Origin: a virus
Taxonomy: Duplodnaviria > Heunggongvirae > Uroviricota > Caudoviricetes
Virus record (IMG/VR): IMGVR_UViG_3300033074_000961
DNA: 64,000 nucleotides
Strand: one strand, 5' to 3'
The position numbers and the translations under genes are program-made. The number at the start of each line of letters is the position of its first letter. Within the stretch, counting starts at the first letter, position 1. Shown one piece after another: positions 9,370 to 63,415 of the stretch. The notes below the pieces were generated by a model. That model did not search any database. It saw only the letters and a program-made list of their open reading frames with translations, and was not told the origin of the DNA.

Positions 9370-9698
9370 CGTCGTTTCCTTCCGAGACGCATAAGATTGT
9401 GCATCTGCTTTTGTTCAAATATCTTTACCTGCAAGTGATGCCCTTCCTTAAACCTTTCGTCGGGAGCAGCAACCGCAGCACCGTCATAAGCAGCAAGCAC
9501 TTTCCTTACAGTATCTACCTTAATGGCGGCGAGTTGTTGAAGTTTGAACAACAAGGTCTCCGTTTGAGATTTATTCAACCCACGATGGACACAATGAAGG
9601 GCAATCCTGTGTTCAGGACTGCCCTTCTTTAGCAAATCCCCAGCCACGGCAGCAACTTCGTACTCCCGTTCTGTTAGGGGTTTGGCGTACTTATTCAC
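9366..9698 (-). CDS. hypothetical protein with possible C-terminal HTH (LTEREYEV)
   Basis: Weak similarity to LuxR / sigma region-4 HTH. Confidence 0.3.
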   Translation of the reverse strand: MNKYAKPLTEREYEVAAVAGDLLKKGSPEHRIALHCVHRGLNKSQTETLLFKLQQLAAIKVDTVRKVLAAYDGAAVAAPDERFKEGHHLQVKIFEQKQMHNLMRLGRKRR

Positions 9699-10470: not shown

Positions 10471-10471
10471 A

Positions 10472-10681
10472 TTAGAAACACTCCGTCTTTTTTGTTACAC
10501 CGAATTTCTTCATTGTTCTCTTCATGTCCGCAACCGCATCCCGCTTACGTTTGAAGGGAAGTCGGTTGGTAATCCACGCATCAGCAAACATACCGGGACC
10601 AAACCAAATGGGACATGCCCATTCCCATTGCCTATCAAGGCGACGGTTGAGGGTTCTGCGATAGGAGACAATCTCTTTCAT
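10472..10681 (-). CDS. hypothetical small protein
   Basis: 69-aa ORF between nadE and pncB. Confidence 0.3.
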   Translation of the reverse strand: MKEIVSYRRTLNRRLDRQWEWACPIWFGPGMFADAWITNRLPFKRKRDAVADMKRTMKKFGVTKKTECF

Positions 10682-11874
10682 GCTCCAATCTCCTGTAATG
10701 CCCGTTGAATTGCAGCGGCATCGCCTGTGTGCTTGCCAGCGTCATCCGAGAGCTTGACCACGGGAATCATACCTTGCCCGAAGTCAGCAGCAGTCAGTTT
10801 GATAACCATATTCAGCGGTTTGACTCCAACATCGTTAGTGAAGTTCGTTCCGATACCACCAACCGGCTGAGCAACTTTGCGATACTTATGGTCAATCGCC
10901 ACATAGTTGTAGTTTTTGCCAGCCATCACTTGGTCCTTCGGGGCAACCCCGAGACTGTCACTGAACACGAGACGCTTACCAATGGGATTGATACGCATAC
11001 GAGCGTAGAACGGCAGTACCTTATTGTCTGCCCAATCATAGGGTACACCCGAGTCTTGCCGCAGTCCATCGTACAGGTGAGCATCGTACTTCTCAAACTG
11101 ACGAAGGAAAAAGTCGGTCGTGAAAGTATCACTAAGAGATACACCAACATCACCCTCAAAGTGCTCTGCCCACACTTTGCGCCACATTTTGTCTGCCATG
11201 CGAACACCGTACAGTGCCGACATTGCCATAATGCATTCGTGGGCGTATGTGCCATGAGGGGTCACACCATACTTGAAAGCGAAATAGGGATTGCTCGTGC
11301 CGAGGAATCCATTAAGCATACGCATCTGTTTAACGACGGCTTCTTGAATCCTCTTGGCGAAACGACGGCGAGTGCCGAAGTCAATCCAGTGGCATCCCTC
11401 AGTCTGTAGGAGCACGCCTTTGTTCTCAATCCGTTGTTCCCACTCAGCATCGGGTTCTTGTCCCGTCATAATGAAATACAACTCGGAAATGATTGCCATG
11501 AGTTTGACTTCCCAGTAAATCGTGCGATACCACGGACCACGGATTTTGATACGAAGGTCTCCACCCTCTTGGGTAATGGTCACTTCATTGGGATTCATCT
11601 GATACCCATACAACCATTCAACATAGGTCGGGCGCATGTAAGGAATCTTCTTGAGCCAATCTGCCTCAAGATTGGTTAGACCAATGTGAGACAGCAAGTT
11701 GATTTGATGCTGTAGGTTTTCGGCAAACCCCTCGGGAAACTGAGTTTTGCCCCGGTTGAAGAAGGTGTACTCCACAATGGCACGGGGAAACATATGGAAG
11801 ACCACAGACCCCATGTTAATCTTGTAGAGGTCATCGTCCAACATGCTTGTGATAATCGGGCCTTTCACGTTCAT
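10678..11874 (-). CDS. pncB: nicotinate phosphoribosyltransferase
   Basis: DLYKINM N-terminus and GTSNPYFAFKYG region typical of PncB; 398 aa. Confidence 0.8.
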   Translation of the reverse strand: MNVKGPIITSMLDDDLYKINMGSVVFHMFPRAIVEYTFFNRGKTQFPEGFAENLQHQINLLSHIGLTNLEADWLKKIPYMRPTYVEWLYGYQMNPNEVTITQEGGDLRIKIRGPWYRTIYWEVKLMAIISELYFIMTGQEPDAEWEQRIENKGVLLQTEGCHWIDFGTRRRFAKRIQEAVVKQMRMLNGFLGTSNPYFAFKYGVTPHGTYAHECIMAMSALYGVRMADKMWRKVWAEHFEGDVGVSLSDTFTTDFFLRQFEKYDAHLYDGLRQDSGVPYDWADNKVLPFYARMRINPIGKRLVFSDSLGVAPKDQVMAGKNYNYVAIDHKYRKVAQPVGGIGTNFTNDVGVKPLNMVIKLTAADFGQGMIPVVKLSDDAGKHTGDAAAIQRALQEIGA

Positions 11875-11912: not shown

Positions 11913-12204
11913 CCAATCCAAGAATCTCTCTAAGTCTCTTGGAAGGAGGGTTGTTCAACTTCCGGCGTTGGTCTCCCCACCACCGATTCTTTCTGAACCA
12001 CTTGGCAATGTCTCGCTTTACCAAGGGTCTGCCTAAACGATGTTCAAAGCATCCAATGCAAATGATAGCGGTGGCATTCTCACGCATTACGAATTTCCAC
12101 AATCCATTATTGACATAAAAATCTTCTCCCCGTCTCCACGGGTGACACCCACAGTCAACACAAGGCCAGTGACGCTTGTTATCGTTATGTAGTCTGGAAA
12201 TCAT
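11905..12204 (-). CDS. Cys-rich hypothetical protein
   Basis: CVDCGCHPW...CIGCFEH. Overlaps the downstream start by 4 nt. Confidence 0.35.
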   Translation of the reverse strand: MISRLHNDNKRHWPCVDCGCHPWRRGEDFYVNNGLWKFVMRENATAIICIGCFEHRLGRPLVKRDIAKWFRKNRWWGDQRRKLNNPPSKRLREILGLGA

Positions 12205-13925
12205 TTGCGTTTGATTTGATGAAAGCTGTTGCCATTGATAAAGAAAATGCCATCGCTGGTTGAGAACAACTTCATAGTGCTATCAAATGGAGGATTCTGC
12301 AACGTTTCAACCTGAGTGGCAGTGGCGAACAATTCCAATTCGTCGGGACTCGCCAGCAAAGCACACATACCATTCTCCATCACTGTGAAGTTGATAGTAT
12401 CATATGCCACGTCATCCACTTTGCGAACATCGCACGAGTTGTATGCCTTGTTGAAAATGATAATGAAGCGATCATATTGACCCTTCTTTTCACCGAGGAC
12501 CACAACTACATTCCGTTCTGCCTTGGCACCGACAATACGATACCCGTCCAACTGTGGGACGTGCTTGCTGAAACACGCACCTTGTTTGTATGGCAAGGTC
12601 AGATACATCTTGCCGAGCAAGTCCTGTACCACACAACCATCGTACATCTTGGAAGTAGTAACCGAGACGTTGGCAATTTCAATAGCACGACGAACCATTT
12701 TGTTGCCGAATGCCGTGAAGGAGTTCTCCATCAACTTACCGTGGGCAATGGTATAGATGCTGTTGTTCCTTGCGAACATTTCATTGCTCGTTGCCGTGCC
12801 AATAGGTTCACTAGCAGTAAGAGTCTTGAAGACTATCTTATTGCTATTGTCTTGTTGAGCAGTAATGAGAGTGCCATCCGATGCCGAGCAGAGAGTAATC
12901 TTCTTGGCATTATGCGTACCAATCTCTTTCTTGTTGGCATAGATATGGGTCTTAGTTGCCACGTAGTAGATGCCCAAGATTTGTTGAATTGCCAAGATAG
13001 GATTGGTATAGGCAGCGATTTCACTGACACCAATCTTATCCGTGCCTTGGATAGTGATAACTTGAGTGGGCACAAGCAAGGGCACACTACTATCTGCCAG
13101 CGGTGGAACACCACGCTCACCATTCAAGAACACTCGTTTGAACCAATCCAAGTGACGGCCCGGGATGACTTTGAAATCATTAACCGATGGAGGGACACGC
13201 ACTCCGCTATGGAATACGCTAATACCGTCGTCCATTTGCTTCGCCTTATCCTTGGGTTTGTAGTTGGGGTGAGTCCCACGATAAGGATGGATATTGGTAT
13301 AGAGCCAGAACGTCAGCACAGACCACGAGAACCAATCCGACTCAATGGTGGGATTGTAGTGCATAGTTCCACCCTTGTCAAAGGTAGTAACTTTCCTATC
13401 TCTCACCGAGTCCATAATAGCAGTTGCTCTGAACGATGGAGTGGAGTAACTATCCGTATCAATAAACCACGGCGTAAGATTGCTTCCCTTTTGTTCGGCA
13501 AGAATGTTCAACTCATTCAAGTCCACAATGAGACATTGAGCGGAGTGAACGTCGGCAACCACCTTCTGCATTTCTTTGACAAGGTGATTAACCATATGGA
13601 AGTCAATGTTGTTCGCATCCTTGAATGTGCGGGTGAAGAACTTCAAGAGCGGTTCAACGTTGTCCACGAAGCGGGTAGTGTACCCGAGCGGTTTGCCGTT
13701 CTTCGGGTCAAAGATGATTTCTTGTGGGATGACTACTTGGGGATTCTTAATCAATCCCAACTCCTGCATTTTCTTTGGCGGGAGCATCTTCTGGTCGGGG
13801 TCATGGTACAACTTATACGCCATGCCACTTTGGACATAGATTGCCGCTTCACCGCCAGCTGCCAAGTAGTTCTTGTCAGTAATGGTGATTACGCCACTGT
13901 TGCCTATTTTGACTTTCTGGTTCAT
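12201..13925 (-). CDS. protein-kinase-like (ePK/RIO/Kdo-like fold) protein with C-terminal extension
   Basis: Gly-rich loop AAGGEAAIYV, lysine in AYKLY, catalytic-loop-like IVDLNELNIL, FIDTDS (DFG-like). Confidence 0.5.
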   Translation of the reverse strand: MNQKVKIGNSGVITITDKNYLAAGGEAAIYVQSGMAYKLYHDPDQKMLPPKKMQELGLIKNPQVVIPQEIIFDPKNGKPLGYTTRFVDNVEPLLKFFTRTFKDANNIDFHMVNHLVKEMQKVVADVHSAQCLIVDLNELNILAEQKGSNLTPWFIDTDSYSTPSFRATAIMDSVRDRKVTTFDKGGTMHYNPTIESDWFSWSVLTFWLYTNIHPYRGTHPNYKPKDKAKQMDDGISVFHSGVRVPPSVNDFKVIPGRHLDWFKRVFLNGERGVPPLADSSVPLLVPTQVITIQGTDKIGVSEIAAYTNPILAIQQILGIYYVATKTHIYANKKEIGTHNAKKITLCSASDGTLITAQQDNSNKIVFKTLTASEPIGTATSNEMFARNNSIYTIAHGKLMENSFTAFGNKMVRRAIEIANVSVTTSKMYDGCVVQDLLGKMYLTLPYKQGACFSKHVPQLDGYRIVGAKAERNVVVVLGEKKGQYDRFIIIFNKAYNSCDVRKVDDVAYDTINFTVMENGMCALLASPDELELFATATQVETLQNPPFDSTMKLFSTSDGIFFINGNSFHQIKRK

Positions 13926-14701
13926 ACCACAATTGCCGCTACGGAAATATCGTCGGAATGCTTAATGCCTTCCTTCTCACATTTCCTTTTGAATGCCGCA
14001 AGACGACGGAGAACGAATTCGCCCTCGGTTGTCTTGTATCCCGTGAACTCGTCAACGAGGCTAGTCCATAGGATAGGTTCATTATCTGCACGACGAAAAC
14101 TATTGATACCATCCGAAATAACTGCAATGATGTCTCCCGGCTCCACGGTCGCATCAAAACTATATGGTTCAAGTGGCTTGGTGTTGACTTGAACAGTCTT
14201 GCCGAGGATAGTCACGGCGACTTCCTTCTTATTATCCTCTATGTTCTCGTAGGCTTGTCGCCTTAGAGGGTCAAGTTGATAAGCAAGGTAGTCAGGTGCT
14301 CCGCTAGTAAGATGGATATGGATACTATTGACGCCTAGTTTGGTTCTATGAACCAAGACACCATCACCATACATACGAGCAGTCAGTTTACCTTCCTTCA
14401 CCCACGCCACAAGCAACGTCGCATCCAATGCTTGAGAATGGAGATAAGGGAAGACATCAAATACTCGTTGGGCATTGTGGATAACATCCTGCCCCCACAG
14501 TTTGGCATCACTTTCCAATCCCAAACGAATCTGTCTCTTGGCAGACATGGCAAGACAACGAGCACCGAAGTCCACGTCGGGAGAAGCGGAGCATCCATCA
14601 CATACTACTGCATATGTCTTGCCTGCGATTTCCCCTGTGAGAGCATAGTCCTCACATACAATGTGGTCTTTGCCGATTTGATATGTACTGTTGGCGTTCA
14701 T
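13922..14701 (-). CDS. PP2C-family Ser/Thr protein phosphatase
   Basis: AVVCDGCSAS, VISDGI, DDISV metal-binding motifs. ATGA overlap with the kinase gene. Confidence 0.65.
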   Translation of the reverse strand: MNANSTYQIGKDHIVCEDYALTGEIAGKTYAVVCDGCSASPDVDFGARCLAMSAKRQIRLGLESDAKLWGQDVIHNAQRVFDVFPYLHSQALDATLLVAWVKEGKLTARMYGDGVLVHRTKLGVNSIHIHLTSGAPDYLAYQLDPLRRQAYENIEDNKKEVAVTILGKTVQVNTKPLEPYSFDATVEPGDIIAVISDGINSFRRADNEPILWTSLVDEFTGYKTTEGEFVLRRLAAFKRKCEKEGIKHSDDISVAAIVV

Positions 14702-18014: not shown

Positions 18015-18944
18015 TTACGGTAAGCGTAGTATCTCATTGTTGAAGTAATCGTTCAACATATGGAGCAGCGGACGATGGTTTTCCGAAACCTCCGCTTCGC
18101 TTAATTCTGCAAAGTTTTTCCAAGTGACATACTCAATGTCATCTGCCGCCTTGGGTGTACCGCCATTGTATTTCAATACGAAAAGGGCGGTCATAATCTT
18201 GTCTTGCTCCGAGCGGTAACGCCAATCATTAACGAAAGTGCTACCAACATACTTCGGTTCAATCACGTCAAGTCCCGTCTCTTCTTTGACTTCACGGATA
18301 GCTGCCTCTTCCATGCTCTTATCTTGAGCGGGGTCTGTGAACCCACCGGGGAAGCAGAGGGTAGAACGATTGGGTTTACGAGCAAGTAGAAGGCGTTTGT
18401 TATCGTAATCAATCACCGCCATGTCCACTGTCAACTTGAACGATGGGAATTGATTTTGGACTGCGTAAACAATACCTTCACGAAAGTCTTGGGTGGGTTT
18501 GGCCTTGATGCCGATGCGTCGGCGAATTTCACTCGCCGAAATGAATTTGCTAGGCACAAGTTCAATGGTGGGAAACCCACCCTTGTAGGAATTGATGAAA
18601 CTATCCCGACTGCCATACATGACCGCTTTCAATTTGGGTCCGATGGTCTGCGAAATGAGCTTGTCAAGGTTCTTGCTCCAAAGGTCGTTGTCGCCAACGT
18701 CATTCAGATAGAGAACTTCAACATCCCGATACTTTTCCTCAACCATTGCCTTGCGGATGCCGAAGTCAAACGGGTTGTTGGCAGTACACTTGAGCGGGGA
18801 TAGACCGAGAACGATGATTACTCGGGGATGGGCGTTGCGGACAATCTCGATGATTTCTTGATGTCCCTCGTGGAGGAATGGCGATTGGAATCTCGCCACA
18901 ATAACGCCAACGTCTGCATTTTGTTCAGTCACTTTCATAGTCAC
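18015..18944 (-). CDS. nadM: bifunctional NMN/NaMN adenylyltransferase – Nudix (ADP-ribose pyrophosphatase) NadM-type
   Basis: N-terminal ARFQSPFLHEGH (HxGH NMNAT motif as in NadM). C-terminal Nudix box REVKEETGL. Confidence 0.75.
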   Translation of the reverse strand: MTMKVTEQNADVGVIVARFQSPFLHEGHQEIIEIVRNAHPRVIIVLGLSPLKCTANNPFDFGIRKAMVEEKYRDVEVLYLNDVGDNDLWSKNLDKLISQTIGPKLKAVMYGSRDSFINSYKGGFPTIELVPSKFISASEIRRRIGIKAKPTQDFREGIVYAVQNQFPSFKLTVDMAVIDYDNKRLLLARKPNRSTLCFPGGFTDPAQDKSMEEAAIREVKEETGLDVIEPKYVGSTFVNDWRYRSEQDKIMTALFVLKYNGGTPKAADDIEYVTWKNFAELSEAEVSENHRPLLHMLNDYFNNEILRLP

Positions 18945-19065: not shown

Positions 19066-19296
19066 TCAAGTTCTTTCTGCAACTTCTTCAAGTTGCTCTG
19101 CCGTAAGGGGTTTCCATCCTTCGATTTTTCCAGTGTCGTTGTCAATGGTGAGGCGAACATAGTCACCACCACCAATGCCAAGGTTGCGAGGCACTTCCCC
19201 ATTATATTCAAGTTCTGTCTCAAGGACTTTCATCCCGAAGCAGTCACTACACTTTGCCACGATTCGTATTTTCATATCAGTTTGTTTGTAGGGCAA
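19066..19296 (-). CDS. hypothetical protein
   Basis: 76-aa ORF. Confidence 0.3.
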   Translation of the reverse strand: MPYKQTDMKIRIVAKCSDCFGMKVLETELEYNGEVPRNLGIGGGDYVRLTIDNDTGKIEGWKPLTAEQLEEVAERT

Positions 19297-19942
19297 CGAG
19301 GCGGTCCAAACCTATGGCAACCTCGAAAACGATACCGTGCTCCCAATCACTACGCACCGAGCACCCCGCCACTTCCAACCCATTCAACTCCCAATCAAGG
19401 GTCTTGCTGGAATAGTGTGGTAATTCTTTTGCTTCAACAATTGTGCCGCCATAGCGTCCCGTCAATGCTGCCAATGCTTCCTCAAGGTACGGAGCTTTTG
19501 TGCCGAGCGAAGTAAAGAGCTGAAACTCCATCTGGTAAAATTGAATTAAACGCAGCTGCGATGCCCTCATGGTGTCGGCACACTTCTCGTCACGGAAGCT
19601 ACACCCGACTTGCCACATGCAGAAAGGTAGATATTTCTTCATTAGTGCCTTGTCGGGGAACTTCTGATCGAAGGATTCGTACGTGCCCACGGTTGTCTCA
19701 GGACGAAGAAAAAGGTTGCGCTCGCTCTTGACTTCAAGCAACTCAAACCCTGTAGCAATGTGAGAAGCAAGACGCTCCCGAGGGACAAGTATTGGCGTCT
19801 CACAACGCTCCATCTTGACGGCGGGATTTAGATTGCGCCAAGTGTCAATAAGCAGAGCGGGAATCTCCCGAATCAAAGACTCACGGCGAGTGATTTCAAA
19901 CTCCGACCAACTGACAGTAGCGTTTGTGAAAATAGGTTTCAT
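19277..19942 (-). CDS. class IIa aminoacyl-tRNA-synthetase-like catalytic core (HisRS/HisZ-like), no anticodon-binding domain
   Basis: Motif 1-like FLRPETT, motif 2 CSFRDE...QFYQMEF, motif 3 AIGLDRLVAL. Confidence 0.5.
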   Translation of the reverse strand: MKPIFTNATVSWSEFEITRRESLIREIPALLIDTWRNLNPAVKMERCETPILVPRERLASHIATGFELLEVKSERNLFLRPETTVGTYESFDQKFPDKALMKKYLPFCMWQVGCSFRDEKCADTMRASQLRLIQFYQMEFQLFTSLGTKAPYLEEALAALTGRYGGTIVEAKELPHYSSKTLDWELNGLEVAGCSVRSDWEHGIVFEVAIGLDRLVALQTN

Positions 19943-21604: not shown

Positions 21605-22771
21605 TTACAAAAGTTCTTTTTCAAAGTATCCATTGACGTACCCTTCAATGTACTTAGCGTGAGCGGGACTGTCTGCCCCTTGCACGTCTCCCGCAAGGAA
21701 ACGAGCAGAGTTCAAACGGTCCTTGTCATAGATACCCGCTTGCATTCCTTCGAGATACTTTTCCTCGTTGTCATCATCGTCGGAAAGGACACCGGCATCT
21801 TGTGCTGCCTGCACCAGTTCATTTGAATTTGGTGAAAGCGAATCTGCCAGTGCAACACCACCAATCACGGCGGGATCACCATTAGGCGCATCAAGACCGG
21901 GAGTCTCCATCGCACGGCATTGTTCACAATCACACCCACAGTTGGGACAGTCAGTACCGCCACAAGTGCAAGAGTTGTCAGTATCAAACTCGGGGTCTCG
22001 GGGTTCAAATTCCGAAGTATAAGTATCAGGCATCGGTCCAGTATATTCACCAATTACCCGATATTTGCAGCAACGAAGTTTCTGGCATGAGCAGTCGGAA
22101 GGCACAGAAACCACGTCGGCGGGGTCAATTTCCACTAGAATCACACGCTCGCCCCAACCACGGGCATAGGCGAGAGAACCAGCGTGCAACCCGAAGGAGC
22201 ATCCATTGCGGAAGTCGTCATCGCACGAGGACCGTTCGATTTCGATAGTTTTCCCGATTTCATTCAAGATATGTCCCTCGGAGTCCGTGACACCTTGAAG
22301 CACCACAGTCTTGGTGTTACCCATCACCGAGTAGAAAGACGAGCGGACACCTTTGTAGGCAATAATCATACCCTCGGGAGTCAGGGGCATGTTTTTGTGC
22401 TCAAGAAAGTTGTACAATTCGTTGATGGCTCGAGCGGAAGGATTCTTCAACTTACGTGCCATGTAATTGGCAATCGGCCTGAAGGGGAGACCATCACGCA
22501 AGAAAGCAAGCACCCGATCCGAATCAACCCCGTGCATCGGACGACCAGCATACGTGACACCTGTAGAATTCACGGAGAGCAACCCCACCGTGTAGTCTTC
22601 CATGACTGCCTTGAGAGAGATAAGGGAGCGAAGCACTGCTTCGTTTCCCGCTTTGAATGCATCCACAATCTCCGTCCACTTGGGATGGTCATTGCGAGCA
22701 GTGAGAATTTCGGAACCACCATTCAATACGAGGGTGAGCGTTCCATTCGTCAAAGACATTGCTGTAATCAT
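21605..22771 (-). CDS. hypothetical protein with Cys-rich segment; possible rIIB-like partner of rIIA (by position only)
   Basis: 388 aa, immediately downstream of the rIIA-like gene. Confidence 0.3.
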   Translation of the reverse strand: MITAMSLTNGTLTLVLNGGSEILTARNDHPKWTEIVDAFKAGNEAVLRSLISLKAVMEDYTVGLLSVNSTGVTYAGRPMHGVDSDRVLAFLRDGLPFRPIANYMARKLKNPSARAINELYNFLEHKNMPLTPEGMIIAYKGVRSSFYSVMGNTKTVVLQGVTDSEGHILNEIGKTIEIERSSCDDDFRNGCSFGLHAGSLAYARGWGERVILVEIDPADVVSVPSDCSCQKLRCCKYRVIGEYTGPMPDTYTSEFEPRDPEFDTDNSCTCGGTDCPNCGCDCEQCRAMETPGLDAPNGDPAVIGGVALADSLSPNSNELVQAAQDAGVLSDDDDNEEKYLEGMQAGIYDKDRLNSARFLAGDVQGADSPAHAKYIEGYVNGYFEKELL

Positions 22772-34592: not shown

Positions 34593-35051
34593 TTAGGGGT
34601 GAAGCGGTAAGTCGCCCACCAGCATTTCTCTATCGGGACTATCATCAGCGATGAATAAGTACCCGCAAGTGAGTTCGTTTCTGAACAGAACCCACCGACC
34701 ATCTTCGTTTATGATTGCATCTGCCGTAAACGTGCGGCGGTCAATTAACTGAGCAATTTCTTCGTGGAGGGAATAACCATACTCAGGATCATATACTAAT
34801 CCCGCAGGCCATCCCTTCTTCAATGCTGCCTTGATAACTTCTGCCAGTTGAATTTTGTTGGCAGACAGACAAATCGTTGTACCAAATCCCTTGGCATCAT
34901 GTTGCCATTCTTTCACCCGAGGATGCTTGGGATACTCGAAAGTGAACTGGTTCGCCGCATGTGCGGCGTGTGCCATACCCTTACCGGGATTCAGCGAGGG
35001 CAAGTCATTACGCATCAAAATGTATAGGCGATGATTGGAACGTTTCTTCAT
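34593..35051 (-). CDS. peptidyl-tRNA hydrolase PTH2-family protein
   Basis: LYILMRNDLPSLNPGKGMAHAAHAA parallels the PTH2 VVRxDLxMxxGKxAAQxxHAA motif. Confidence 0.5.
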   Translation of the reverse strand: MKKRSNHRLYILMRNDLPSLNPGKGMAHAAHAANQFTFEYPKHPRVKEWQHDAKGFGTTICLSANKIQLAEVIKAALKKGWPAGLVYDPEYGYSLHEEIAQLIDRRTFTADAIINEDGRWVLFRNELTCGYLFIADDSPDREMLVGDLPLHP

Positions 35052-40243: not shown

Positions 40244-40577
40244 AAGGGATTAGTTTATAGTCATAGTCTTCTATGATATGGGGAGTTTCCCACGAAGACC
40301 ATTCATTACAGGTGACAACTTCATAGATACCATCTTTGCACTCATCAAGGTTGATGATGTTTTTGACTACTTCATCAGCACCAGCATTATGACAATCTTC
40401 ATAGAGAAGATTATATCCTTGGCATTTGCGCCGAAGATAACGGAGGGTTTTCTTGATATGTATTCCACTCCCGTCGTGCCATACCGAAGTTGTAAGTCGG
40501 ACAACACACTTGGGCGGGGGTTCTTTATACTTGGCAACCAAGTCATCAAAGGTTAGTGCTGTGATTTCTTTGCTCAT
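40203..40577 (-). CDS. hypothetical protein
   Basis: 124-aa ORF. Confidence 0.35.
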   Translation of the reverse strand: MSKEITALTFDDLVAKYKEPPPKCVVRLTTSVWHDGSGIHIKKTLRYLRRKCQGYNLLYEDCHNAGADEVVKNIINLDECKDGIYEVVTCNEWSSWETPHIIEDYDYKLIPYEETTPLRPVDGK

Positions 40578-41176
40578 CGGGCAACTACTTTGATGAAGTA
40601 GGTTAGTTCAATCTTCTCACCCACCGTAGAGGATACATCCTTGATAAGTTGACCTATCGTAACCGTATCCTCACGGACAAAGGGTTGATTGAGCAGACAT
40701 ATCTGGTTCACTCGCTTCTGAATTTTTCCTTGAATGATCTTGTCCCGCACCGGAGCAGGTTTGCCCTCCGTCTCACGGATGTATTCACTTGCCCACTTCA
40801 AGCGAACATCCTCTGGAATGGACTCCATAGAGATGTACTCGGGAGCAACAGGAGCAGAGACAATATGCATACAGATATTTTTTGCCAATGTAATGAAGGC
40901 ATCACTCTTGGCAACGAAGTCGGTCTGACATGCAAGCACAATCATTGCGCCAACACGGTTGTTGTGGACGTAAGAGTACACAATCTTGGTGTTGGCAGTG
41001 CGATTCGCCATCTCATTGGCATCTGCTTGCTTCTCGGCAATCAGAATCTTGACCGCTTCCGCCTCATCACCATTCGCTCGTTGAAGAGCTTCGTTGATCT
41101 TATTGATAGGTGAAAAGGTGATAGCACGGATATGCTTTACCTTCTCCACATTGGTCATTGTCTTTTCAACATTCAT
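40574..41176 (-). CDS. tsf: translation elongation factor Ts (EF-Ts)-like protein, short form
   Basis: N-terminal UBA-like VKHIRAITFSPINKINEALQ...AEAVKILIAE, core LACQTDFVAKSDAF (compare EF-Ts CETDFVA+N..F), C-terminal LLNQPFVREDTVTIGQLIKD. Confidence 0.55.
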   Translation of the reverse strand: MNVEKTMTNVEKVKHIRAITFSPINKINEALQRANGDEAEAVKILIAEKQADANEMANRTANTKIVYSYVHNNRVGAMIVLACQTDFVAKSDAFITLAKNICMHIVSAPVAPEYISMESIPEDVRLKWASEYIRETEGKPAPVRDKIIQGKIQKRVNQICLLNQPFVREDTVTIGQLIKDVSSTVGEKIELTYFIKVVAR

Positions 41177-41436: not shown

Positions 41437-41713
41437 CTGATTTTGTTCCTTTGCCGAAGACTTGTTCAAACAAACCACTCTTACCAAAGACTTCCTCGAA
41501 CACGCTTTCGTATTCTCTGTACAATCCTTGATTGATTGGTTTAGTGAACCGCAACCCTTGTTTGCACGTTGGGCATGGCAGAGTAAAGATGGGTGCATTG
41601 GTGGGATAATCTCCCTTTTCCATTTCAAACTGACAACCACATACACGGCAAGAGAATTTCTTACCCAACCACCAGAACTCTGGTTCTAATTTGCCTTCTT
41701 TCAGTATTTTCAT
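41417..41713 (-). CDS. zinc-ribbon hypothetical protein
   Basis: CRVCGCQF...CPTCKQ. Confidence 0.3.
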   Translation of the reverse strand: MKILKEGKLEPEFWWLGKKFSCRVCGCQFEMEKGDYPTNAPIFTLPCPTCKQGLRFTKPINQGLYREYESVFEEVFGKSGLFEQVFGKGTKSDDAGRK

Positions 41714-41864
41714 TTTGTAAACTTTCCCCACAGGAATCCAACAGCAACAAATCCAACGAGTATAATGGCAAGGTGCATTGCTTTCACTCCTACCCAAGCT
41801 ATCGCCAATCCCTTCACTAAAATAACGAGAAGGAAAATAATTGCTATGACTCCTACAACTTTGT

Positions 41865-42656
41865 TCATTTTGGATATTCAGGTATCATTGCAAGGATTTT
41901 ATCCTTATCTTCGGTAAACTTCCACGCACCCTTGGAAACCCATCTAGTGCGCTCAACGGTGTTGTCTTGAATTTGAGCTTCAAAACTCTCTTTCACAATG
42001 AGACGCCCGTTCTTCTCACCATCGGTGTAATCCGTGGCCCAGTTCTTACCCGCTTGGTGAATCATCTCATGCTTGTCCGAAGTGGACTTGCCGTGAAGCT
42101 CCTTGTGCGAGTACAGGGATTGAGCAACCATTGAGACAGAGTTGCGAGCACAATCTTGATTACGCCAGATGAAGTAGTTCATCACTTCAACTCTGTCAGG
42201 AATGGTGAATACACGGGCATCAAAGAATGCCAGATGCTTTCGCATCCTCGCTTCTTTCAAATCCATTGGCAGTGTTTGAGTAATCTTAAACGCTCTCTCA
42301 AGCCGACATTGATTGAATTCCGCAGTCATGATAGATGCCGCCACAGAACACATTTTCTGTAGGTTGCCGTCAAACCATGCACAAGTACCAATGTCAACGA
42401 AGTCGGTCAAAAGTACACTGATCTCGTCAGATTGGGTATAGGCGAAGACCGCCCCCTGAAGTTCTGGGAGCATCGCAATGATTGCGGCGTCAATGTCCTC
42501 AAAGAGTCCTTTGTCAAAAGGTTTCTCAAGTCCTCGGGTGTACGTATGAAATGCCTTACCATCCAGACGGATGATTGTGTAAGTGCGTCTTGGCAGTAAG
42601 AACCGAGTACGGTCCTCATACTGCCCCTTCATTCTGTCGCCAAGTGCGTCTTGCAT
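41865..42656 (-). CDS. Thg1-like protein (tRNA-His guanylyltransferase / 3'-5' nucleotide polymerase family)
   Basis: RLDGKAFHTYTRGLEKPFD, AYTQSDEISVLL, FFDARVFTIP, NYFIWRNQDCARNSVSM follow the Thg1 family motif pattern. Confidence 0.6.
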   Translation of the reverse strand: MQDALGDRMKGQYEDRTRFLLPRRTYTIIRLDGKAFHTYTRGLEKPFDKGLFEDIDAAIIAMLPELQGAVFAYTQSDEISVLLTDFVDIGTCAWFDGNLQKMCSVAASIMTAEFNQCRLERAFKITQTLPMDLKEARMRKHLAFFDARVFTIPDRVEVMNYFIWRNQDCARNSVSMVAQSLYSHKELHGKSTSDKHEMIHQAGKNWATDYTDGEKNGRLIVKESFEAQIQDNTVERTRWVSKGAWKFTEDKDKILAMIPEYPK

Positions 42657-42659
42657 AAG

Positions 42660-43127
42660 TTATGAGAAGTGTTCGAACTGGAAGGTTGTCTCGGGACCAG
42701 TGCGCCAGACAACATCGCTGCCCTGATTGTCATAGAGAGCACCACCCGACCAACCTGTATTCAAGTTCAAATTGTCCTTGAAGATGTTGGGAAGAACGTT
42801 CCAACTCCAATTTACACTGACATCGGTTGACCCTGCAAATGTGGGTTCCCAATACAAACTCTGAGCGAGAGTAATCCACACTTCGGGACGCTTCTCAAAT
42901 GGATTGGTTCCAATAGAGAAGTCCAGACCGAAATAGGACTCCCCGTTGAGAGATTCACCACCACCGCCAAGGGTCAGTTCCCAACTGCCATATTCATTCT
43001 CCGCAGCGGGAGCATTGGTCAGTGATAGAGACGGAGCCGTAATGGCGTTAGTGCTGATGTTTGTCTGAGCGTTAACACTGAAGGTCAGTGCGACGAGCAG
43101 AATGAGTGATACAATGTACTTTTTCAT
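42660..43127 (-). CDS. signal-peptide protein, probable outer-membrane β-barrel
   Basis: MKKYIVSLILLVALTFSVNA signal peptide, alternating Gly/aromatic β-strand pattern, ends ...FQFEHFS. Confidence 0.4.
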   Translation of the reverse strand: MKKYIVSLILLVALTFSVNAQTNISTNAITAPSLSLTNAPAAENEYGSWELTLGGGGESLNGESYFGLDFSIGTNPFEKRPEVWITLAQSLYWEPTFAGSTDVSVNWSWNVLPNIFKDNLNLNTGWSGGALYDNQGSDVVWRTGPETTFQFEHFS

Positions 43128-43396
43128 ATGATTGTTTTCTGTATGTGTGTTTTGGTTGGGTGAGACAATTAGTCCGAGTTCATGGGAACGACGCAAGAGA
43201 AGAGAATCATCTTGGTCAATGAATATGTTTGTTGCCATAAATTAGAATCCCCACTCGTCTCGGAGTGCTTTCTTATCTGCCTTGCGCTTCTCACGGACTT
43301 CCTTGCGACGTTTCTTCGCTGCCCCACGGCGTTGCTGTGGGGTCATATAGCGAGTATCAATACGCTCGGCATGTCTTTCTTTGAGGACGTAGGGTC

Positions 43397-46185: not shown

Positions 46186-47193
46186 TTACTTTCCAGCGAT
46201 GGGTTTCATGCCCGAACGATGGCGTCCGAACACCTTTTTACGCAACTCCACAATTGTATCACAAAGGTCTTCCTTGCCATACTGCGGACGGGAGTTCACG
46301 TCTCGTGCAATCAATCGCTTAATGAATGCACACATTTCTTCGGGTACATCTTTAGGCACCATCTTACGCTCAACGTATTCTGGACCACCCGATAAAGCAT
46401 AAATCATCGTCATTCCAAGACTGTAATAGTCAGACTCGGGAATGAGGGGTTTGCCAGCTATTTCTTCGGGAGGGGCAAAGTAAGGAGTGAACCCCTTTGC
46501 TTCGGCAGAACCCGTGGGTTTCACCATTGACAAACCGAAGTCCACCAGAACTGCCATGTGCCTATCCTCTTGCACGATGATATTCTGGGGTTTCAAATCG
46601 CCATGCACCACGCCATGACGATGAATGTAATTAAGAGCATTGAGGATTCTTTCAGTAATCCACGCAACGGTTTCTGGTTCCATTGCTCCTACTCGTTTCA
46701 CTTCTTTCTCAAGAGTGAGACCGGGAATGTAGCTCATGACGAGCAGTACCCGTCCATCTTCCAACTTATACAAATCCCTCATGGCGGGGAGAGCGTAGTG
46801 TCTCAAATCCCACAACACTCGGCACTCTTGAACAAGCATATCCACATCATCCAAAGAGACGTTAGAGCAGTCTTTGATACAGACCAATTCTTTGAGAATG
46901 GAATGCTCTGCTTTGTAGGTGCGACCAAACCCGCCTTCGGCAATAACAGATTGAACTTTGTAAGGTCCAATTATCTTGGTAGTGCCTTCGATACGTTCAC
47001 GGTCAAAATCACGACGCTTACGGGGGTCGGTAAGAATGTCATGTGCTTCGTTGAGGGAACGGGCATGAGACCCCACAGTGGCATGGTCTAAATCAGGATG
47101 ATGTTCCTTCATTAGTGCCCGATATGCCGCCTCAATCACTGAGGGACTTGCTTTCGGGTGGACTTGGAGGACTTGATACCAGTCGTTTTTCAT
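46186..47193 (-). CDS. J-domain (DnaJ) – Ser/Thr protein kinase fusion
   Basis: N-terminus DWYQVLQV...MKEHHPD (J domain with HPD). Kinase HRHGVVHGDLKPQNII, DFG, APE-like PPE. Confidence 0.65.
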   Translation of the reverse strand: MKNDWYQVLQVHPKASPSVIEAAYRALMKEHHPDLDHATVGSHARSLNEAHDILTDPRKRRDFDRERIEGTTKIIGPYKVQSVIAEGGFGRTYKAEHSILKELVCIKDCSNVSLDDVDMLVQECRVLWDLRHYALPAMRDLYKLEDGRVLLVMSYIPGLTLEKEVKRVGAMEPETVAWITERILNALNYIHRHGVVHGDLKPQNIIVQEDRHMAVLVDFGLSMVKPTGSAEAKGFTPYFAPPEEIAGKPLIPESDYYSLGMTMIYALSGGPEYVERKMVPKDVPEEMCAFIKRLIARDVNSRPQYGKEDLCDTIVELRKKVFGRHRSGMKPIAGK

Positions 47194-50957: not shown

Positions 50958-52514
50958 TTACACCACAACACGGTCGTAACGAGGATTGTTCACCGTCTCG
51001 TAAACGATGTCCATAGGACTGAAGCTCTTCGCTGAGAGCAGCGACTTCAAGATGCTTGGTGAGCATCCCGAGACAAGGGCAGTGCCATTGTCGTCCGCAC
51101 GGATTGGGAAGTTATCGTTGCGGGAGGCAACGTTCCACCACACGATGCGAGGCAGCGTGTATCCATGCTTCTCGTACTTCTCACGGATGACTTGGAAGTT
51201 GGTCTTGCTGTTGCAACCCGAGGCTGCATCAAACTCCATGTCGGAGACCACATAGAGAACGCTTGGCATATCCTTTGCCGCAACACGGTTCTGCACCGCA
51301 GTACGGAGGATAAGGTCAAACGCAGACTGGAGATTCGTGGACTGAGCCCAGTTGGACTTGTCCATGTTATCCCACTTCTCAAGCAAGGTTTGTCCAACCA
51401 ACTTTTGGAAGGTTGGCGAGCTGGAGAAGTTCATCCAGAAGTCCTTGAAAGGACCAACGTTACGCTCTGCGAAGTAAATCGCAAGCGAGACCGACACGAG
51501 AATTGGCAGCATGTCATGGGTGAACATGGAGCCAGACACGTCGGCAATAACAATACCATAGTGCTCGTTACCTTCCAGCCAGTTTGGCATGGACTTCCAT
51601 TGCAGGTCTGCCTGCTTTGCGCTCATGGCGTCTGGACGACCATGCATGACGATGGAACGCAGGATTTCGTATGGGAATACGGCACCGGCATTCATCTTCT
51701 TCTCGCCCTTCTCAACGGACTTGAGATAGGCAGCGTAACGCTCCTGATCGTGCTTACCGAACGCCTTGCGGTAGTTCAGCGAAGCCTTGGAAGGAACGTG
51801 CTCGAAGTCAATCTTGGCCCAGTCGCCAGCGCACATCTTGACTTCAAGTACATCAATGTGCTTACGCAGCGCAGAGAGAATCTTGCGGTAACGCTTTGGA
51901 GTCAGTTCAAGAGCCTCACGGGTCTTGCGAGCAAGACGACGGGACTCCGCAGAACTGGTGTTCTCGGACTTGAGCCACTTGGCAAGCAGCGAGACGGACT
52001 CGCCCTTCTTCATGTTCTTGAGGTCTGCCTTCAACTGGGTAGCGAAAAGGGCATAGACTTCCGACTCAAGTGGGGTTCCCACGAGAGCATAGAGGTCATC
52101 ATAGCGTCCGAAGAACGCCACGTTCTCAAGGTTCTTGCGAGCAACGTCGGTGTAGTTCTGGGCGAGCCAGTTCACCAACGTACGGAAGGTCTTACGCTCT
52201 CCCTGTCCCTCACGTACGTCACGGAGGTAGAACAGAATCTTGGTAGCCAAGAGACGGTCCTGTGCAAATGCACGGGAGAAAAGATTGATTACGTCCTGCT
52301 CGGCACGAGAGCGGATTGCTCCACCAGCACCGAAGAAGTCGAGGACATAGTTGAGCGTGCTCTTGTTGGTCAGAGCACCCTTCTCGGTATAACCGAGATT
52401 TCCCTGATTCTGCATAGCAGACAGGAATGGGTTCTGTGAGAGCACAGTGGTTTGAGGCACAAACTGAGTTGAGCGGGTCTTACGAGTCACGTTCTTCATA
52501 ACGGTTCCTTTCAT
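50958..52514 (-). CDS. TROVE-like N-terminal domain + C-terminal vWA protein (Ro60/Rsr-like or DUF2828-type)
   Basis: C-terminal MIDAS IVIADVSGSM. N-terminal GYTEKGALTNKST...LDFF and REGQGERKTFRTLVNWL resemble TROVE motifs. Confidence 0.45.
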   Translation of the reverse strand: MKGTVMKNVTRKTRSTQFVPQTTVLSQNPFLSAMQNQGNLGYTEKGALTNKSTLNYVLDFFGAGGAIRSRAEQDVINLFSRAFAQDRLLATKILFYLRDVREGQGERKTFRTLVNWLAQNYTDVARKNLENVAFFGRYDDLYALVGTPLESEVYALFATQLKADLKNMKKGESVSLLAKWLKSENTSSAESRRLARKTREALELTPKRYRKILSALRKHIDVLEVKMCAGDWAKIDFEHVPSKASLNYRKAFGKHDQERYAAYLKSVEKGEKKMNAGAVFPYEILRSIVMHGRPDAMSAKQADLQWKSMPNWLEGNEHYGIVIADVSGSMFTHDMLPILVSVSLAIYFAERNVGPFKDFWMNFSSSPTFQKLVGQTLLEKWDNMDKSNWAQSTNLQSAFDLILRTAVQNRVAAKDMPSVLYVVSDMEFDAASGCNSKTNFQVIREKYEKHGYTLPRIVWWNVASRNDNFPIRADDNGTALVSGCSPSILKSLLSAKSFSPMDIVYETVNNPRYDRVVV

Positions 52515-59416: not shown

Positions 59417-59620
59417 ATGGCAGAACCAACACGTAAAAGTTACTCGCTTCGCCAAGCAATCAATGCTTTCGCAGGCGTAGATACCGAGCAATCCATCCGC
59501 AACGACACTTGTACCATGTGTCGGAAACCCGCACTTGCCTTCAAAGATGAACTAAGCAAGAAAGAGTTCACCATCAGCGGCATGTGCCAAGAGTGCCAAG
59601 ACAAAGTTTTTGGCTCTTGA
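59417..59620 (+). CDS. small zinc-ribbon protein
   Basis: CTMCRK...CQECQD. Confidence 0.4.
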   Translation: MAEPTRKSYSLRQAINAFAGVDTEQSIRNDTCTMCRKPALAFKDELSKKEFTISGMCQECQDKVFGS

Positions 59621-59655
59621 CAACTGACGATAAAACGCTAAACTCAAGCACAATT

Positions 59656-60918
59656 ATGGCAACTCTAATCAAAGAAGTAAAGCTGATCATGACCGAGGTT
59701 GGCACCAACAACAACAAGTGGTGGACCGGACAGCTTTTTGACGATGGCACAGTCAAAGCGACTTGGGGACGTGTCGGATACTCTGGTGACTCGGGTGAAT
59801 GGCAGGGTGGACAATCGTATTTGGATAAGAAAGTCAAGGAGAAGATCAAGAAGGGTTATACTGAGTTGAAGACTGTTGGTAACGCTGGTATTGCGCCGTC
59901 CAGTTCTGCTCCCGTTCGCAATGCAGACCTTCACCAGATTGCCAAAACTCAACTTATCAAATCTTCCAACCCGACGCTGGAACGTTTGATTAAGCGTTTC
60001 GTTGAAGCAAACGTCCACAAGATTACTCGTGACACGCAAATCACCTACAATTCATCAACGGGTTTGTTTGCCACGCCTCTCGGTATTGTCACGATGGAAG
60101 GTTTGACCGATGCTCGTGACTTGCTCGCCAAACTTGCTCCTATCGTTCGTGGTCGTCGCTTCGGGTCCGAAGCAGATGCTCTTTTGAGTAAGTATCTTCG
60201 TCTCATTCCTCAACATTTGGGTATGGGGCGATTCTCTTGCCAGTCGGTTATCCCCGACGACAATGCTTTGCAGAAGCAGAGCGACTTGATTGACTCTTTG
60301 GAGTCGTCCTATCAAGCAATGTCCACGCAACCGGCTCAAGCGGGTCAACCCGTCAAGAAGCAGGAAACCGTGTTCCAAGTGGACTTGGACGTACTCACCG
60401 ACCAATCCGAGCGCAATCGTTTGGAACGTTATTTTGAAACGTCCAAGAAACGTATGCACGGGTATGACAACGTGCGAGTGAAGGAAATCTTCGCCGTCAA
60501 TGTCCACGATATGACTCGTGGGTTTGAAAACAGCACCACTCCCATTAAAGAAGTGTTCCACGGCACTTCCCAAGCAAACTGCCTCTCCATTCTCAAGAGT
60601 GGACTCAAGGTGTCGCCTCCGTCCACTGCTGCCATCGCTGGCAAGATGTTCGGCAACGGCATCTATGGCGCAATCAACTCCACCAAGAGCCTTGGTTATA
60701 CTTTCAACCGTTGGGGTCAAGGTGGAGTGGGCGATGCGGGATGGCTCTTCATCTGTCAGTTCGCAATGGGCAAGATTTACGAGACTCGGCACAGCTGCTC
60801 TCCGCAACGGGGTTACGACTCTGTATGGGCGAAGGCTGGCGGCAGTCTGGCGAATGATGAATTGATCGTCTATCGCAATACCCAAGTCAAAATCACTCAC
60901 CTTTTGGAGTGCAAATAA
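59656..60918 (+). CDS. WGR domain – PARP-like catalytic domain ADP-ribosyltransferase
   Basis: N-terminus ATWGRVGYSG (WGR). C-terminus VFHGTSQANCLSILKSGLKV...GKMFGNGIYGA...NDELIVY parallels the PARP1 H-G-S / Y / E catalytic core (LLWHGSR...GYMFGKGIYFA...YNEYIVYD). Confidence 0.65.
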   Translation: MATLIKEVKLIMTEVGTNNNKWWTGQLFDDGTVKATWGRVGYSGDSGEWQGGQSYLDKKVKEKIKKGYTELKTVGNAGIAPSSSAPVRNADLHQIAKTQLIKSSNPTLERLIKRFVEANVHKITRDTQITYNSSTGLFATPLGIVTMEGLTDARDLLAKLAPIVRGRRFGSEADALLSKYLRLIPQHLGMGRFSCQSVIPDDNALQKQSDLIDSLESSYQAMSTQPAQAGQPVKKQETVFQVDLDVLTDQSERNRLERYFETSKKRMHGYDNVRVKEIFAVNVHDMTRGFENSTTPIKEVFHGTSQANCLSILKSGLKVSPPSTAAIAGKMFGNGIYGAINSTKSLGYTFNRWGQGGVGDAGWLFICQFAMGKIYETRHSCSPQRGYDSVWAKAGGSLANDELIVYRNTQVKITHLLECK

Positions 60919-62298: not shown

Positions 62299-62477
62299 TG
62301 CCCGACTTGCCCGACATTGTGGTTCATCTTCCGGCAGAGCATTTCGATGCTCTGTCGGAAGTTATCTTTTCGGGACTTCAACGGGCAAACATTGACCCTA
62401 AGACCCGCAACGAGCTTCGGGATTGGTGGACCGCCGAAAAGGAATTCATAGAAGACGAAATAAAGGGACAAGCGTGA
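62298..62477 (+). CDS. small hypothetical protein (59 aa, below the ORF-track cutoff)
   Basis: Manual translation MPDLPDIVVHLPAEHFDALSEVIFSGLQRANIDPKTRNELRDWWTAEKEFIEDEIKGQA. TAATG and GTGA couplings on either side. Confidence 0.3.
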   Translation: MPDLPDIVVHLPAEHFDALSEVIFSGLQRANIDPKTRNELRDWWTAEKEFIEDEIKGQA

Positions 62478-63415
62478 GCGAGATTGTTATTGTAATGGGA
62501 TTCCCCGCCTCGGGGAAGAGTACGACGGTTGACCAATTTGTTAAACAAGGGTACACCCGCTTCAATCGTGATGCTGCTGGCGGCACAATGGAAGGTTTAC
62601 ATAATGCCGTTGACCAATACCTTCAGAAGTGCAACGACAATGTAGTACTTGATAATCTTTATCCTTCGGTGGAAAGTCGCAAGGCAATCATCGCCATCGC
62701 CAAGAAGCACAAGGCAACCATTCGGTGTGCCATGATGGGTACAAGCATGGAAGATTCTATGCTGAATGCCTGTCTCCGCATGATGCAGAAGCATGGATGT
62801 ATCCCCGACCCCAAAGATTTTGGACGAGTGGCAGACCCTAACACCTTCCCCGTAGCAGTTATCTACAAGTATCGGAAAGAGTTTCAACAACCGACCACAA
62901 AGGAGGGATTCGGTTCTGTCCAAGTAGTGCCGTTTGTTCGCACTTGGGGACCAGATTACATCAACAAAGCCATCCTTGTGGACTATGATGGCACTCTCCG
63001 ACTCAGCACGGGTAAACAGAAGTTCCCTATTCTTAAAGGGGATATAAAGATGATGCCGGGAAGGAAGGAAGTCCTACAACGGTACAAGGACCAAGGGTAT
63101 CTTATTTTGGGCGTAAGTAATCAATCAGGTGTCGCCAAGGGGCAGATTACCTTCGCTGAGTGCAAGCAACGATTTGTTGATACCAATGAAATGCTTGGGA
63201 AGGGTATCGTGGACGAATTCTCGTTCTGCCCTCACAAAGTCCCACCCATTTCATGCTACTGCCGCAAACCCAATGTTGGAATAAGTGCTTTTTACATTTA
63301 TCAACACAAGCTTCGACCTTCGGAATGTATCATGGTTGGCGATATGGGGAGCGATAAAACATTCGCTCATAGAAGTGGGTTTAAGTTTGTTCATGCCGAC
63401 GAATTTTTCAAATAA
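62474..63415 (+). CDS. pnk: polynucleotide 5'-kinase / 3'-phosphatase (T4 Pnk-like)
   Basis: N-terminal P-loop IVIVMGFPASGKST, C-terminal HAD phosphatase ILVDYDGTL ... GDMGSDK. GTG start 62474 preferred (P-loop near the N-terminus as in T4 Pnk). The ORF track gives ATG 62423. Confidence 0.65.
   Translation: MSEIVIVMGFPASGKSTTVDQFVKQGYTRFNRDAAGGTMEGLHNAVDQYLQKCNDNVVLDNLYPSVESRKAIIAIAKKHKATIRCAMMGTSMEDSMLNACLRMMQKHGCIPDPKDFGRVADPNTFPVAVIYKYRKEFQQPTTKEGFGSVQVVPFVRTWGPDYINKAILVDYDGTLRLSTGKQKFPILKGDIKMMPGRKEVLQRYKDQGYLILGVSNQSGVAKGQITFAECKQRFVDTNEMLGKGIVDEFSFCPHKVPPISCYCRKPNVGISAFYIYQHKLRPSECIMVGDMGSDKTFAHRSGFKFVHADEFFK

Follow-up and report, generated by a model that had tools for sequence, protein, structure and literature searches.

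A Thg1-like protein of bacterial type in an uncultivated jumbo-phage lineage, most likely a repairer of 5′-truncated tRNAs

Bacterial Thg1-like proteins (TLPs) repair 5′-truncated tRNAs regardless of the anticodon (PMC3701042; PMC6471195). In the enzyme from Bacillus thuringiensis (BtTLP), D30 and D75 are the two strictly conserved metal ligands and H35 touches the 3′-OH of the activating nucleoside triphosphate (NTP) (PMC3701042). Two motifs have been used by the Jackman laboratory to tell a bona fide Thg1 from a TLP. In the first, KPND, N46 favours non-templated G-1 addition. In the second, HINNLYN, the histidine forms a stack with the GUG anticodon, and non-Watson-Crick addition opposite A73 cannot do without H, Y and N (bioRxiv 10.1101/2025.10.12.681950; PMC6471195). 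Here we describe a TLP gene at positions 41,865 to 42,656 of a 64,000-nucleotide stretch of Caudoviricetes DNA, IMG/VR record IMGVR_UViG_3300033074_000961, referred to below as the window. Its product has an intact active site and the residue signature of BtTLP.

The open reading frame (ORF) encodes, with high confidence, a member of the Thg1-like 3′-5′ polymerase family and enzyme class. This family claim had been made in an earlier note on the same DNA, and the Pfam, PHROG, PDB sequence and Foldseek matches all agree on it, at a level well past what chance would give. The profile search proposed there, against Pfam PF04446 Thg1, returned an E-value of 4.7e-27 and 94.9 bits (cut-off 29.2) over profile positions 3-130 of 130, whereas the Thg1C model, proposed alongside it, stayed below significance (E 0.56). 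PHROG 4717, “tRNA-His guanylyltransferase”, matched residues 1-254 with an E-value of 2.7e-77; a search of NCBIfam returned no family model. Among sequences in the PDB, BtTLP (PDB 4KGK, chain 4kgk_A) was matched at E 3.8e-46, the Candida Thg1 at 3e-15, the Methanosarcina TLP at 4e-10 and human THG1 at 1.5e-6. An AlphaFold2 model built on 35 lineage sequences reached a mean predicted local distance difference test (pLDDT) score of 81.8 and a predicted template-modelling (pTM) score of 0.77, and shows the palm fold and C-terminal domain of the Thg1/TLP superfamily. All 32 significant Foldseek matches of this model in the PDB, which are also its top 32, are Thg1/TLP structures. The best is BtTLP, with a target-normalised template-modelling (TM) score of 0.85 and an E-value of 3e-16; for Thg1 and archaeal TLP structures the TM scores are at most 0.71. 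Both the PHROG profile and the structural alignment with BtTLP (about 255 aligned columns) nonetheless extend over the C-terminal domain.

The gene and its motifs are as follows.

41865..42656, minus strand: TLP coding sequence, 263 residues, ATG to TGA, intact
42549..42569, minus strand: RLDGKAF, residues 30-36, with metal-binding D32 (BtTLP D30) and the invariant R30 and G33
42513..42524, minus strand: KPFD loop, residues 45-48, the universal K-P-x-D in which x is F as in BtTLP and not the N of eukaryotic Thg1
42417..42434, minus strand: QSDEIS, residues 75-80, with S76, metal-binding D77 (BtTLP D75) and E78, all invariant
42213..42224, minus strand: FDAR, residues 145-148, with the invariant F145, D146 and R148
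inside 42129..42167, minus strand: WRNQD, residues 164-168
42129..42167, minus strand: WRNQDCARNSVSM helix, residues 164-176, with the universal R165, D168 and N172 toward the incoming NTP, and A170, S175 and M176 in place of the H, Y and N of Thg1

The four motifs named in the earlier note (RLDGKAF, SDE, FDAR and WRNQD) indeed follow one another in that order. RLDGKAF, FDAR and WRNQD each occur only once across all six frames of the window, and the strand opposite the gene holds only short rival ORFs of at most 68 residues. We aligned the window TLP with 11 lineage members, BtTLP, the Candida Thg1 (CaThg1) and the M. acetivorans TLP (MaTLP). The alignment has 22 invariant columns, which include R30, D32, G33, F36, K45, P46, D48, S76, D77, E78, K101, D146, R148, R165 and N172, and the catalytic positions are 94-100% conserved among 35 lineage members. 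Loss of the metal-binding Asp and Glu residues had been put forward in the earlier note as grounds for dropping the family claim. D32, D77 and E78 are all present, are invariant in both alignments and make up the two-metal site of the superfamily, i.e. the Asp of RxDG and the Asp-Glu of SDE (human D29, D76 and E77). H37, directly after RLDGKAF, is the equivalent of BtTLP H35, and K45-P46-F47-D48 forms the K-P-x-D loop around the activating NTP (bioRxiv 10.1101/2025.10.12.681950). On the helix directed toward the transferred NTP, R165, D168 and N172 in WRNQDCARN take the places of DdiThg1 R147, D150 and N154 and are 100% conserved in the lineage.

The residues that define a bona fide Thg1 are not found in the window protein. 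It reads KPFD in place of KPND and A170-R-N-S-V-S175-M176 in place of HINNLYN. At the same discriminating positions BtTLP has KPFD and SKNSISM with M158, so that F47 and M176 of the window TLP are of the same type. By sequence and by structure alike, the protein is nearest to BtTLP and not to Thg1 or the archaeal TLPs. As KPFD and ARNSVSM are as in BtTLP and the Thg1-defining residues are absent, the window protein is, judged from its sequence, a bacterial-type TLP and not a bona fide Thg1. On the same basis it would most likely repair 5′-truncated tRNAs in a template-dependent manner and not be devoted to adding G-1.

In an uncultivated jumbo-phage lineage the TLP has been kept as a stable gene under selection. 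At least 7,998 homologues lie below E 1e-10 in the protein database; the best 120 of them are metagenomic proteins 60-100% identical to the window TLP, many on contigs of 100-380 kb. Across 35 of these 120, with 66-91% identity, 84 columns are invariant; the cluster names at NCBI for the relatives carried no information. The TLP core is about 80% conserved, in contrast to two hypervariable sites at which the length of the insert varies by tens of residues between relatives.

42231..42311, minus strand: hypervariable insertion site 1, residues 116-142, 18% mean identity to the window residue among the 35 relatives
41949..41981, minus strand: hypervariable insertion site 2, residues 226-236, 28% mean identity to the window residue among the 35 relatives

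Three relatives were read in their genomic context, on an 81 kb IMG/VR contig, a 325 kb Logan contig and a 312 kb contig of GCA_040384425.1. The gene order common to these and the window is Ro-like protein (DUF2828/DUF7788), His-phosphatase, DUF6557, (DnaJ-kinase), TLP, EF-Ts, DHFR, ThyA, ATP-dependent DNA ligase and PTH2. Eighteen IMG/VR viral contigs carry a TLP at 47-76% identity. The window itself is viral because it encodes rIIA and rIIB (PHROG E 3e-86 and 4e-50, respectively).

21605..22771, minus strand: rIIB, PHROG match, phage hallmark
23057..25480, minus strand: rIIA, PHROG match, phage hallmark

In a megablast search the region 36-48 kb matched none of 50,697 phage records, so there is no close isolate. 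An exact-sequence look-up of the window protein among contigs found no entry. A scan of 185,579 species-representative genomes, made with peptide patterns that reach close relatives only, returned a single relative with 37% identity (Polycladospora coralii) and no clue to the host. Since this was the only relative in that scan, the lineage is not a recent copy from a known host. Together with the IMG/VR viral contigs and rIIA/rIIB, the scan marks the lineage as one of phages and not of bacteria.

The sequence data show to which family the protein belongs, that its active site is intact, that its signature residues are those of a TLP and that gene and gene order are conserved; beyond this we infer a substrate and a benefit to the phage. 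In our preferred reading, a catalytically competent bacterial-type TLP repairs 5′-truncated tRNAs and thereby keeps the tRNA pool usable in infection; in this full form, physiological role included, we regard it as reasonably probable. By homology the enzyme would act as a tetramer. As in BtTLP and MaTLP, it would activate an RNA 5′-monophosphate end with ATP or GTP at the two-metal site formed by D32, D77 and E78. An incoming NTP, selected as the Watson-Crick partner of the acceptor stem's 3′ strand, would then attack the activated end through its 3′-OH, and pyrophosphate would be removed in the last step. The net effect would be that missing 5′ nucleotides of a tRNA are rebuilt in the 3′-5′ direction, whatever the anticodon, with templated restoration of G-1 opposite C73 on tRNA-His as one special case. 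Acceptor-stem 5′ repair of this kind may serve the host tRNA pool, the phage tRNA pool or both. The gene is a conserved member of an early or auxiliary block rich in functions of RNA and translation maintenance (Ro-like protein, EF-Ts and PTH2, with ThrRS or ribosome modulation factor in relatives).

The TLP gene is tightly packed, with a gap of 3 nucleotides to the upstream ORF, and is part of a long polycistronic array on the minus strand. Its stop codon overlaps the start of a small downstream ORF, which suggests translational coupling. A scan of 39.0-47.5 kb for consensus promoters and terminators found 15 and 13 sites, respectively, against shuffle means of 13.3 ± 3.9 and 7.8 ± 3.5; these counts lie within about 1.5 standard deviations and thus at chance level. 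PHROG and Pfam searches with the ten ORFs flanking the gene assigned almost none of them. The genes of the window that bear on RNA or translation are listed here together with the downstream ORF.

41710..41868, minus strand: hydrophobic ORF of 52 residues, whose ATG overlaps the TLP stop (ATGA); no family match
40574..41176, minus strand: EF-Ts homologue (Pfam EF_TS, E 1.8e-25), two ORFs downstream of the TLP
50958..52514, minus strand: Ro60/TROVE-like RNA-binding protein (DUF2828/DUF7788), upstream end of the syntenic block
34593..35051, minus strand: PTH2-like peptidyl-tRNA hydrolase (27.2 bits, cut-off 23), downstream end of the block, 7 kb from the TLP
62423..63415, plus strand: bifunctional polynucleotide kinase (N-terminal P-loop)/HAD 3′-phosphatase (Pnkp), 20 kb from the TLP
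4546..5184, minus strand: RNA ligase of 212 residues (PF09414 E 2.2e-10, PHROG 548 E 5.9e-11), 37 kb from the TLP
5181..5777, minus strand: SpoU-class methyltransferase, with the RNA ligase gene directly downstream and overlapping its end
19277..19942, minus strand: ORF of 221 residues resembling a class IIa aminoacyl-tRNA synthetase core (PF00587, 25.7 bits, below the cut-off of 29.3)

The kinase, ligase and PTH2 which the earlier note had grouped with the TLP are thus all encoded in the window, but at distances of 7-37 kb they are not linked to it. The kinase domain of Pnkp matched mammalian PNKP with an E-value of 1.7e-17, and PDB sequence searches with the RNA ligase and the PTH2-like ORF gave no significant match. 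Pnkp, RNA ligase and TLP share a genome, and neither an operon nor a conserved adjacency joins them. What the repair genes display is co-occurrence, not linkage. The genes that do stay near the TLP in the relatives are EF-Ts, DHFR, ThyA, the Ro-like protein and others; on the 312 and 325 kb contigs EF-Ts is again its neighbour.

A few further observations concern these companions. In one relative, a gene for ribosome modulation factor adjoins EF-Ts. EF-Ts itself is much rarer in phages than the TLP, with only 9 weak tblastn matches in the 50,697 phage records. Homologues of the Ro60/TROVE-like protein occur in 711 phage records; Rfam at gathering thresholds found nothing in the whole window, and hence no RNA resembling a Y-RNA or a tRNA that could partner the Ro-like protein. 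The pairing of an RNA ligase with a SpoU-class 2′-O-methyltransferase recalls the bacterial Pnkp/Hen1 repair system, in which methylation shields the repaired junction.

The idea of tRNA 5′-end repair, also raised in the earlier note, is reasonable in view of the TLP family, the metal ligands, Pnkp, RNA ligase and PTH2, and it is weakened by the scatter of the repair genes. Several points weigh against it. Pnkp and the RNA ligase are 20 and 37 kb away from the TLP, and ARAGORN predicted no tRNA gene in either the window or the three syntenic loci closest to it. The physiological role of the bacterial TLPs themselves is not established (PMC3701042), and we found no experiment on, or activity of, any phage TLP in the searchable literature. 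The defence tRNases described there have their cleavage sites in CCA tails, in D-loops, in the loop or stem of the anticodon or, for retron Eco2, in the acceptor stem's 3′ strand; none of these nucleases is known to leave a 5′-recessed substrate for a TLP. As no defence nuclease that trims tRNA 5′ ends was found in the literature searched, the damage to be repaired is hypothetical.

Other readings have to be weighed against this. In vitro, TLPs of bacteria and archaea are able to place G-1 opposite C73 (PMC6471195), database names read “tRNA-His guanylyltransferase” and TLP-bearing jumbo phages encode tRNA-His with C73, all of which would suit an enzyme that mainly adds G-1 to host or phage tRNA-His so that HisRS can charge it. 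We nevertheless judge such a dedicated tRNA-His enzyme unlikely. The HINNLYN histidine and the Thg1-specific N46, Y157 and N158, i.e. the residues for anticodon recognition and non-templated G-1 addition, are absent, and the window holds neither a tRNA-His gene nor a HisRS. The ORF at 19277..19942, described in the earlier note as a class IIa HisRS-like core, proved to be a sub-threshold match to the generic class IIa core. Its nearest PDB matches, weak at E 0.003-0.04, are to GlyRS-type proteins and cover the motif-2 region; PHROG gave no match, and the profile search returned no HisRS-specific family. In the relative L001, a clear ThrRS (E 2e-61) is encoded four genes away from the TLP. Only 4 of the 18 IMG/VR loci with a TLP contain tRNAs, none of them tRNA-His. 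The phages Xoo-sp13 and RAS14 carry a tRNA array with tRNA-His 14-15 kb from a TLP that shares 46-49% identity with the window TLP across roughly three quarters of its length. In both phages the tRNA-His gene encodes G-1, C73 and CCA, the bacterial arrangement. As G-1 is already encoded, these two phages need no post-transcriptional G-1 addition. A tRNA-His-specific role, one of the two functions offered in the earlier note, was rejected on the GlyRS-type synthetase ORF, the ThrRS of L001, the missing Thg1 residues and the encoded G-1. As a side observation, the ORF at 19277..19942 has kept an fRxE-like motif 2 (SFRDEK) and is without an anticodon-binding domain.

Maturation of phage tRNAs by 5′-editing, in which 5′ mismatches are removed and then rebuilt as by the mitochondrial TLPs (DdiTLP3), would fit the large genomes of TLP-bearing phages, usually with many tRNA genes, and the RNase T-like exonuclease that adjoins the TLP in the relative L003. 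However, 26 of 27 phage tRNAs with a clear NCCA end from TLP-bearing loci are fully paired at acceptor positions 1-3, the lone exception being an initiator-like tRNA-Met, and the window has no tRNA genes to edit. This mitochondrial-style editing was rejected on the pairing of positions 1-3, and we hold it to be highly improbable. A substrate other than tRNA or another chemistry altogether, such as action on a different structured RNA (perhaps a partner of the Ro-like protein), cap-like nucleotide addition at 5′ ends or production of a nucleotide signal, is improbable, if slightly less so. The Ro60/TROVE-like gene is conserved in the TLP block, some eukaryotic TLPs act outside tRNA-His maturation (PMC6471195), and the Thg1 palm is distantly similar to cyclases and Cas10. 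These last resemblances are Foldseek matches below significance (E > 0.05), Rfam found no Y-RNA or other non-coding RNA in the window, and the protein is 45% identical to BtTLP with all residues facing both NTP sites conserved. The sporadic distribution of TLPs among phages might, finally, suggest a passenger gene, host contamination or a decaying gene without a role in the phage. We give this hardly any credence, and the conservation pattern already largely refutes it: the ORF is intact, the 84 invariant columns in 35 relatives include the catalytic residues, and the syntenic position is fixed on several large viral contigs. The single 37% relative in the scan of 185,579 genomes, limited to close-relative patterns, likewise speaks against a recent copy from a known host.

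The repair reading allows a bolder extension. The TLP could be a fixed part of a translation-maintenance island (Ro-like protein, TLP, EF-Ts and PTH2, with ThrRS or ribosome modulation factor in relatives) that acts as a counter-defence against an as yet undescribed erosion of acceptor-stem 5′ ends by the host. We consider this doubtful. If it were true, infection would be the long-missing physiological context of bacterial-type TLPs, and an arms race with a host factor would account for the two hypervariable insertions at the surface. A conserved TLP, predicted to be active, in a jumbo-phage lineage is in any case one more indication that tRNA 5′-end integrity matters in infection.

TLPs of phages are not new as such. 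Tblastn found homologues in 162 of the 50,697 phage records (0.3%). Among the records listed, nearly all are large genomes (88-635 kb) and most are annotated “tRNA-His guanylyltransferase”; the phages listed include those of Bacillus, Caulobacter, Mycobacterium, Erwinia, Xanthomonas, Burkholderia, Vibrio and Aeromonas, Lak megaphages and others. The description “rare in phages” calls for qualification and makes the find look newer than it is: most of these genes are already annotated, PHROG 4717 exists and the toolkit idea was published in 2021. The gene of Bacillus phage Bc431v3 was singled out as unusual in 2013 (PMC3601020), Thg1 is listed for the Ralstonia jumbo phage RsoM2USA (PMC8504454), and a review of 224 jumbo phages (Iyer et al. 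2021) places Thg1 among RNA-repair enzymes, with RNA ligases, polynucleotide kinase/phosphatases, a CCA-adding enzyme, Ro/TROVE and PTH2 (PMC7824862). A TLP review of 2019 makes no mention of phages (PMC6471195). Thus, the repair idea of the earlier note is already published as a prediction (PMC7824862). What the window adds is a divergent member of the family and a setting, beside a phage EF-Ts, that is new for it; the idea itself is not new. In mycobacteriophage Kalah2 (L026 20001..20681), a polynucleotide kinase is encoded two genes away from the TLP and an RNA ligase 14 kb further on; in RAS14 the distances from the TLP are 4 kb to an RnlA-type ligase and 15 kb to the tRNA array. Both contexts support a general association of TLPs with RNA repair. 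Database labels of the phage homologues are inconsistent: the Kalah2 TLP is mis-annotated “tRNA nucleotidyltransferase”, likewise several Omegavirus records, and the homologue of Burkholderia phage BcepSauron is called “tRNA synthase”. As a practical gain, the label “tRNA-His guanylyltransferase” can be seen to mislead for phage proteins of this kind, which carry the signature of a repair-type TLP and not that of a G-1-adding Thg1.

Several other features of the window and its relatives deserve mention. Shine-Dalgarno motifs precede 10 of the 53 ATG-start ORFs of at least 90 residues (background 9%), and in the ORF directly upstream of the TLP (42660..43238, minus strand) an internal Met38 precedes a signal peptide that ends in SVNAQ. 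Sparse motifs and signal peptide together hint at a host with weak Shine-Dalgarno usage, e.g. one of the Bacteroidota. In a 113 kb IMG/VR relative (L011), a tmRNA gene is predicted at 7359..7784 (plus strand), 2.2 kb upstream of the TLP. At 59584..60918 (plus strand), a PARP catalytic domain (E 1.3e-22) is combined with an N-terminal WGR domain, the architecture of a eukaryote-like poly(ADP-ribose) polymerase in a phage. The minus-strand regions 2724..3686, 9691..11874 and 18015..18944 encode phosphoribosyl pyrophosphate synthetase, NAD synthase, nicotinate phosphoribosyltransferase and a cytidylyltransferase-like/Nudix fusion (NMNAT-like). This near-complete NAD+ supply set is consistent with a function in countering host defences that deplete NAD+. 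A DnaJ-domain protein fused to a Ser/Thr protein kinase (46186..47193, minus strand) is kept in the relative L001, and at 12201..14701 (minus strand) a kinase-like ORF adjoins a PP2C phosphatase.

Among known systems, the T4 tRNA-repair pair Pnkp and Rnl1, which counters the anticodon nuclease PrrC, and the jumbo-phage toolkits of Iyer et al. 2021 share with the window a Pnkp-type kinase/phosphatase, an RNA ligase and PTH2. In the window, however, these genes are spread over about 58 kb and are not linked, and unlike the anticodon-loop breaks sealed in the T4 case, the site of a TLP is the 5′ end of the acceptor stem. Dictyostelium DdiTLP3, which edits the 5′ ends of mitochondrial tRNAs, is likewise a templated TLP that serves many tRNAs; the phage tRNAs inspected here, apart from the one initiator-like exception, do not encode the 5′ mismatches that call for editing. 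The annotated phage TLPs of PHROG 4717 (Bc431v3 gp143, Xoo-sp13 gp127, Stenotrophomonas RAS14, Kalah2 gp116 and RsoM2USA ORF183) belong to the same family and also come from large or jumbo phages. All TLPs of isolates are less than 50% identical to the window TLP, and no isolate has DNA similarity to the window. In Xoo-sp13 and RAS14, which have RNA-repair genes in their genomes, the TLP lies about 1 kb upstream of rIIA/rIIB, whereas in the window these genes are 16-20 kb away. The arrangement of the window lineage, with the TLP beside EF-Ts in a block with the Ro-like protein, is absent from the isolates examined. With eukaryotic Thg1 (human 3OTB, Candida 3WBZ, yeast 5XOX) the protein has the fold and the two-metal active site in common, and probably the three-step chemistry, but its identity to these enzymes is only 20-31%. 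It differs from BtTLP (PDB 4KGK/4KGM) in an insertion of 15-27 residues after the long helix (residues 116-142), a second variable insert near residues 226-236 and a longer conserved C-terminal tail (WVSKGAWKFTEDKDKLL.MIP.Y); moreover, BtTLP is the product of a cellular gene, whereas the window TLP is viral. Nevertheless, BtTLP remains its closest counterpart: the identity of 45% holds along almost the entire protein, the metal ligands D30 and D75 correspond to D32 and D77, and the KPFD loop, the R-D-N helix with its terminal methionine (M158 in BtTLP, M176 here) and the best structural match are all shared with this enzyme.

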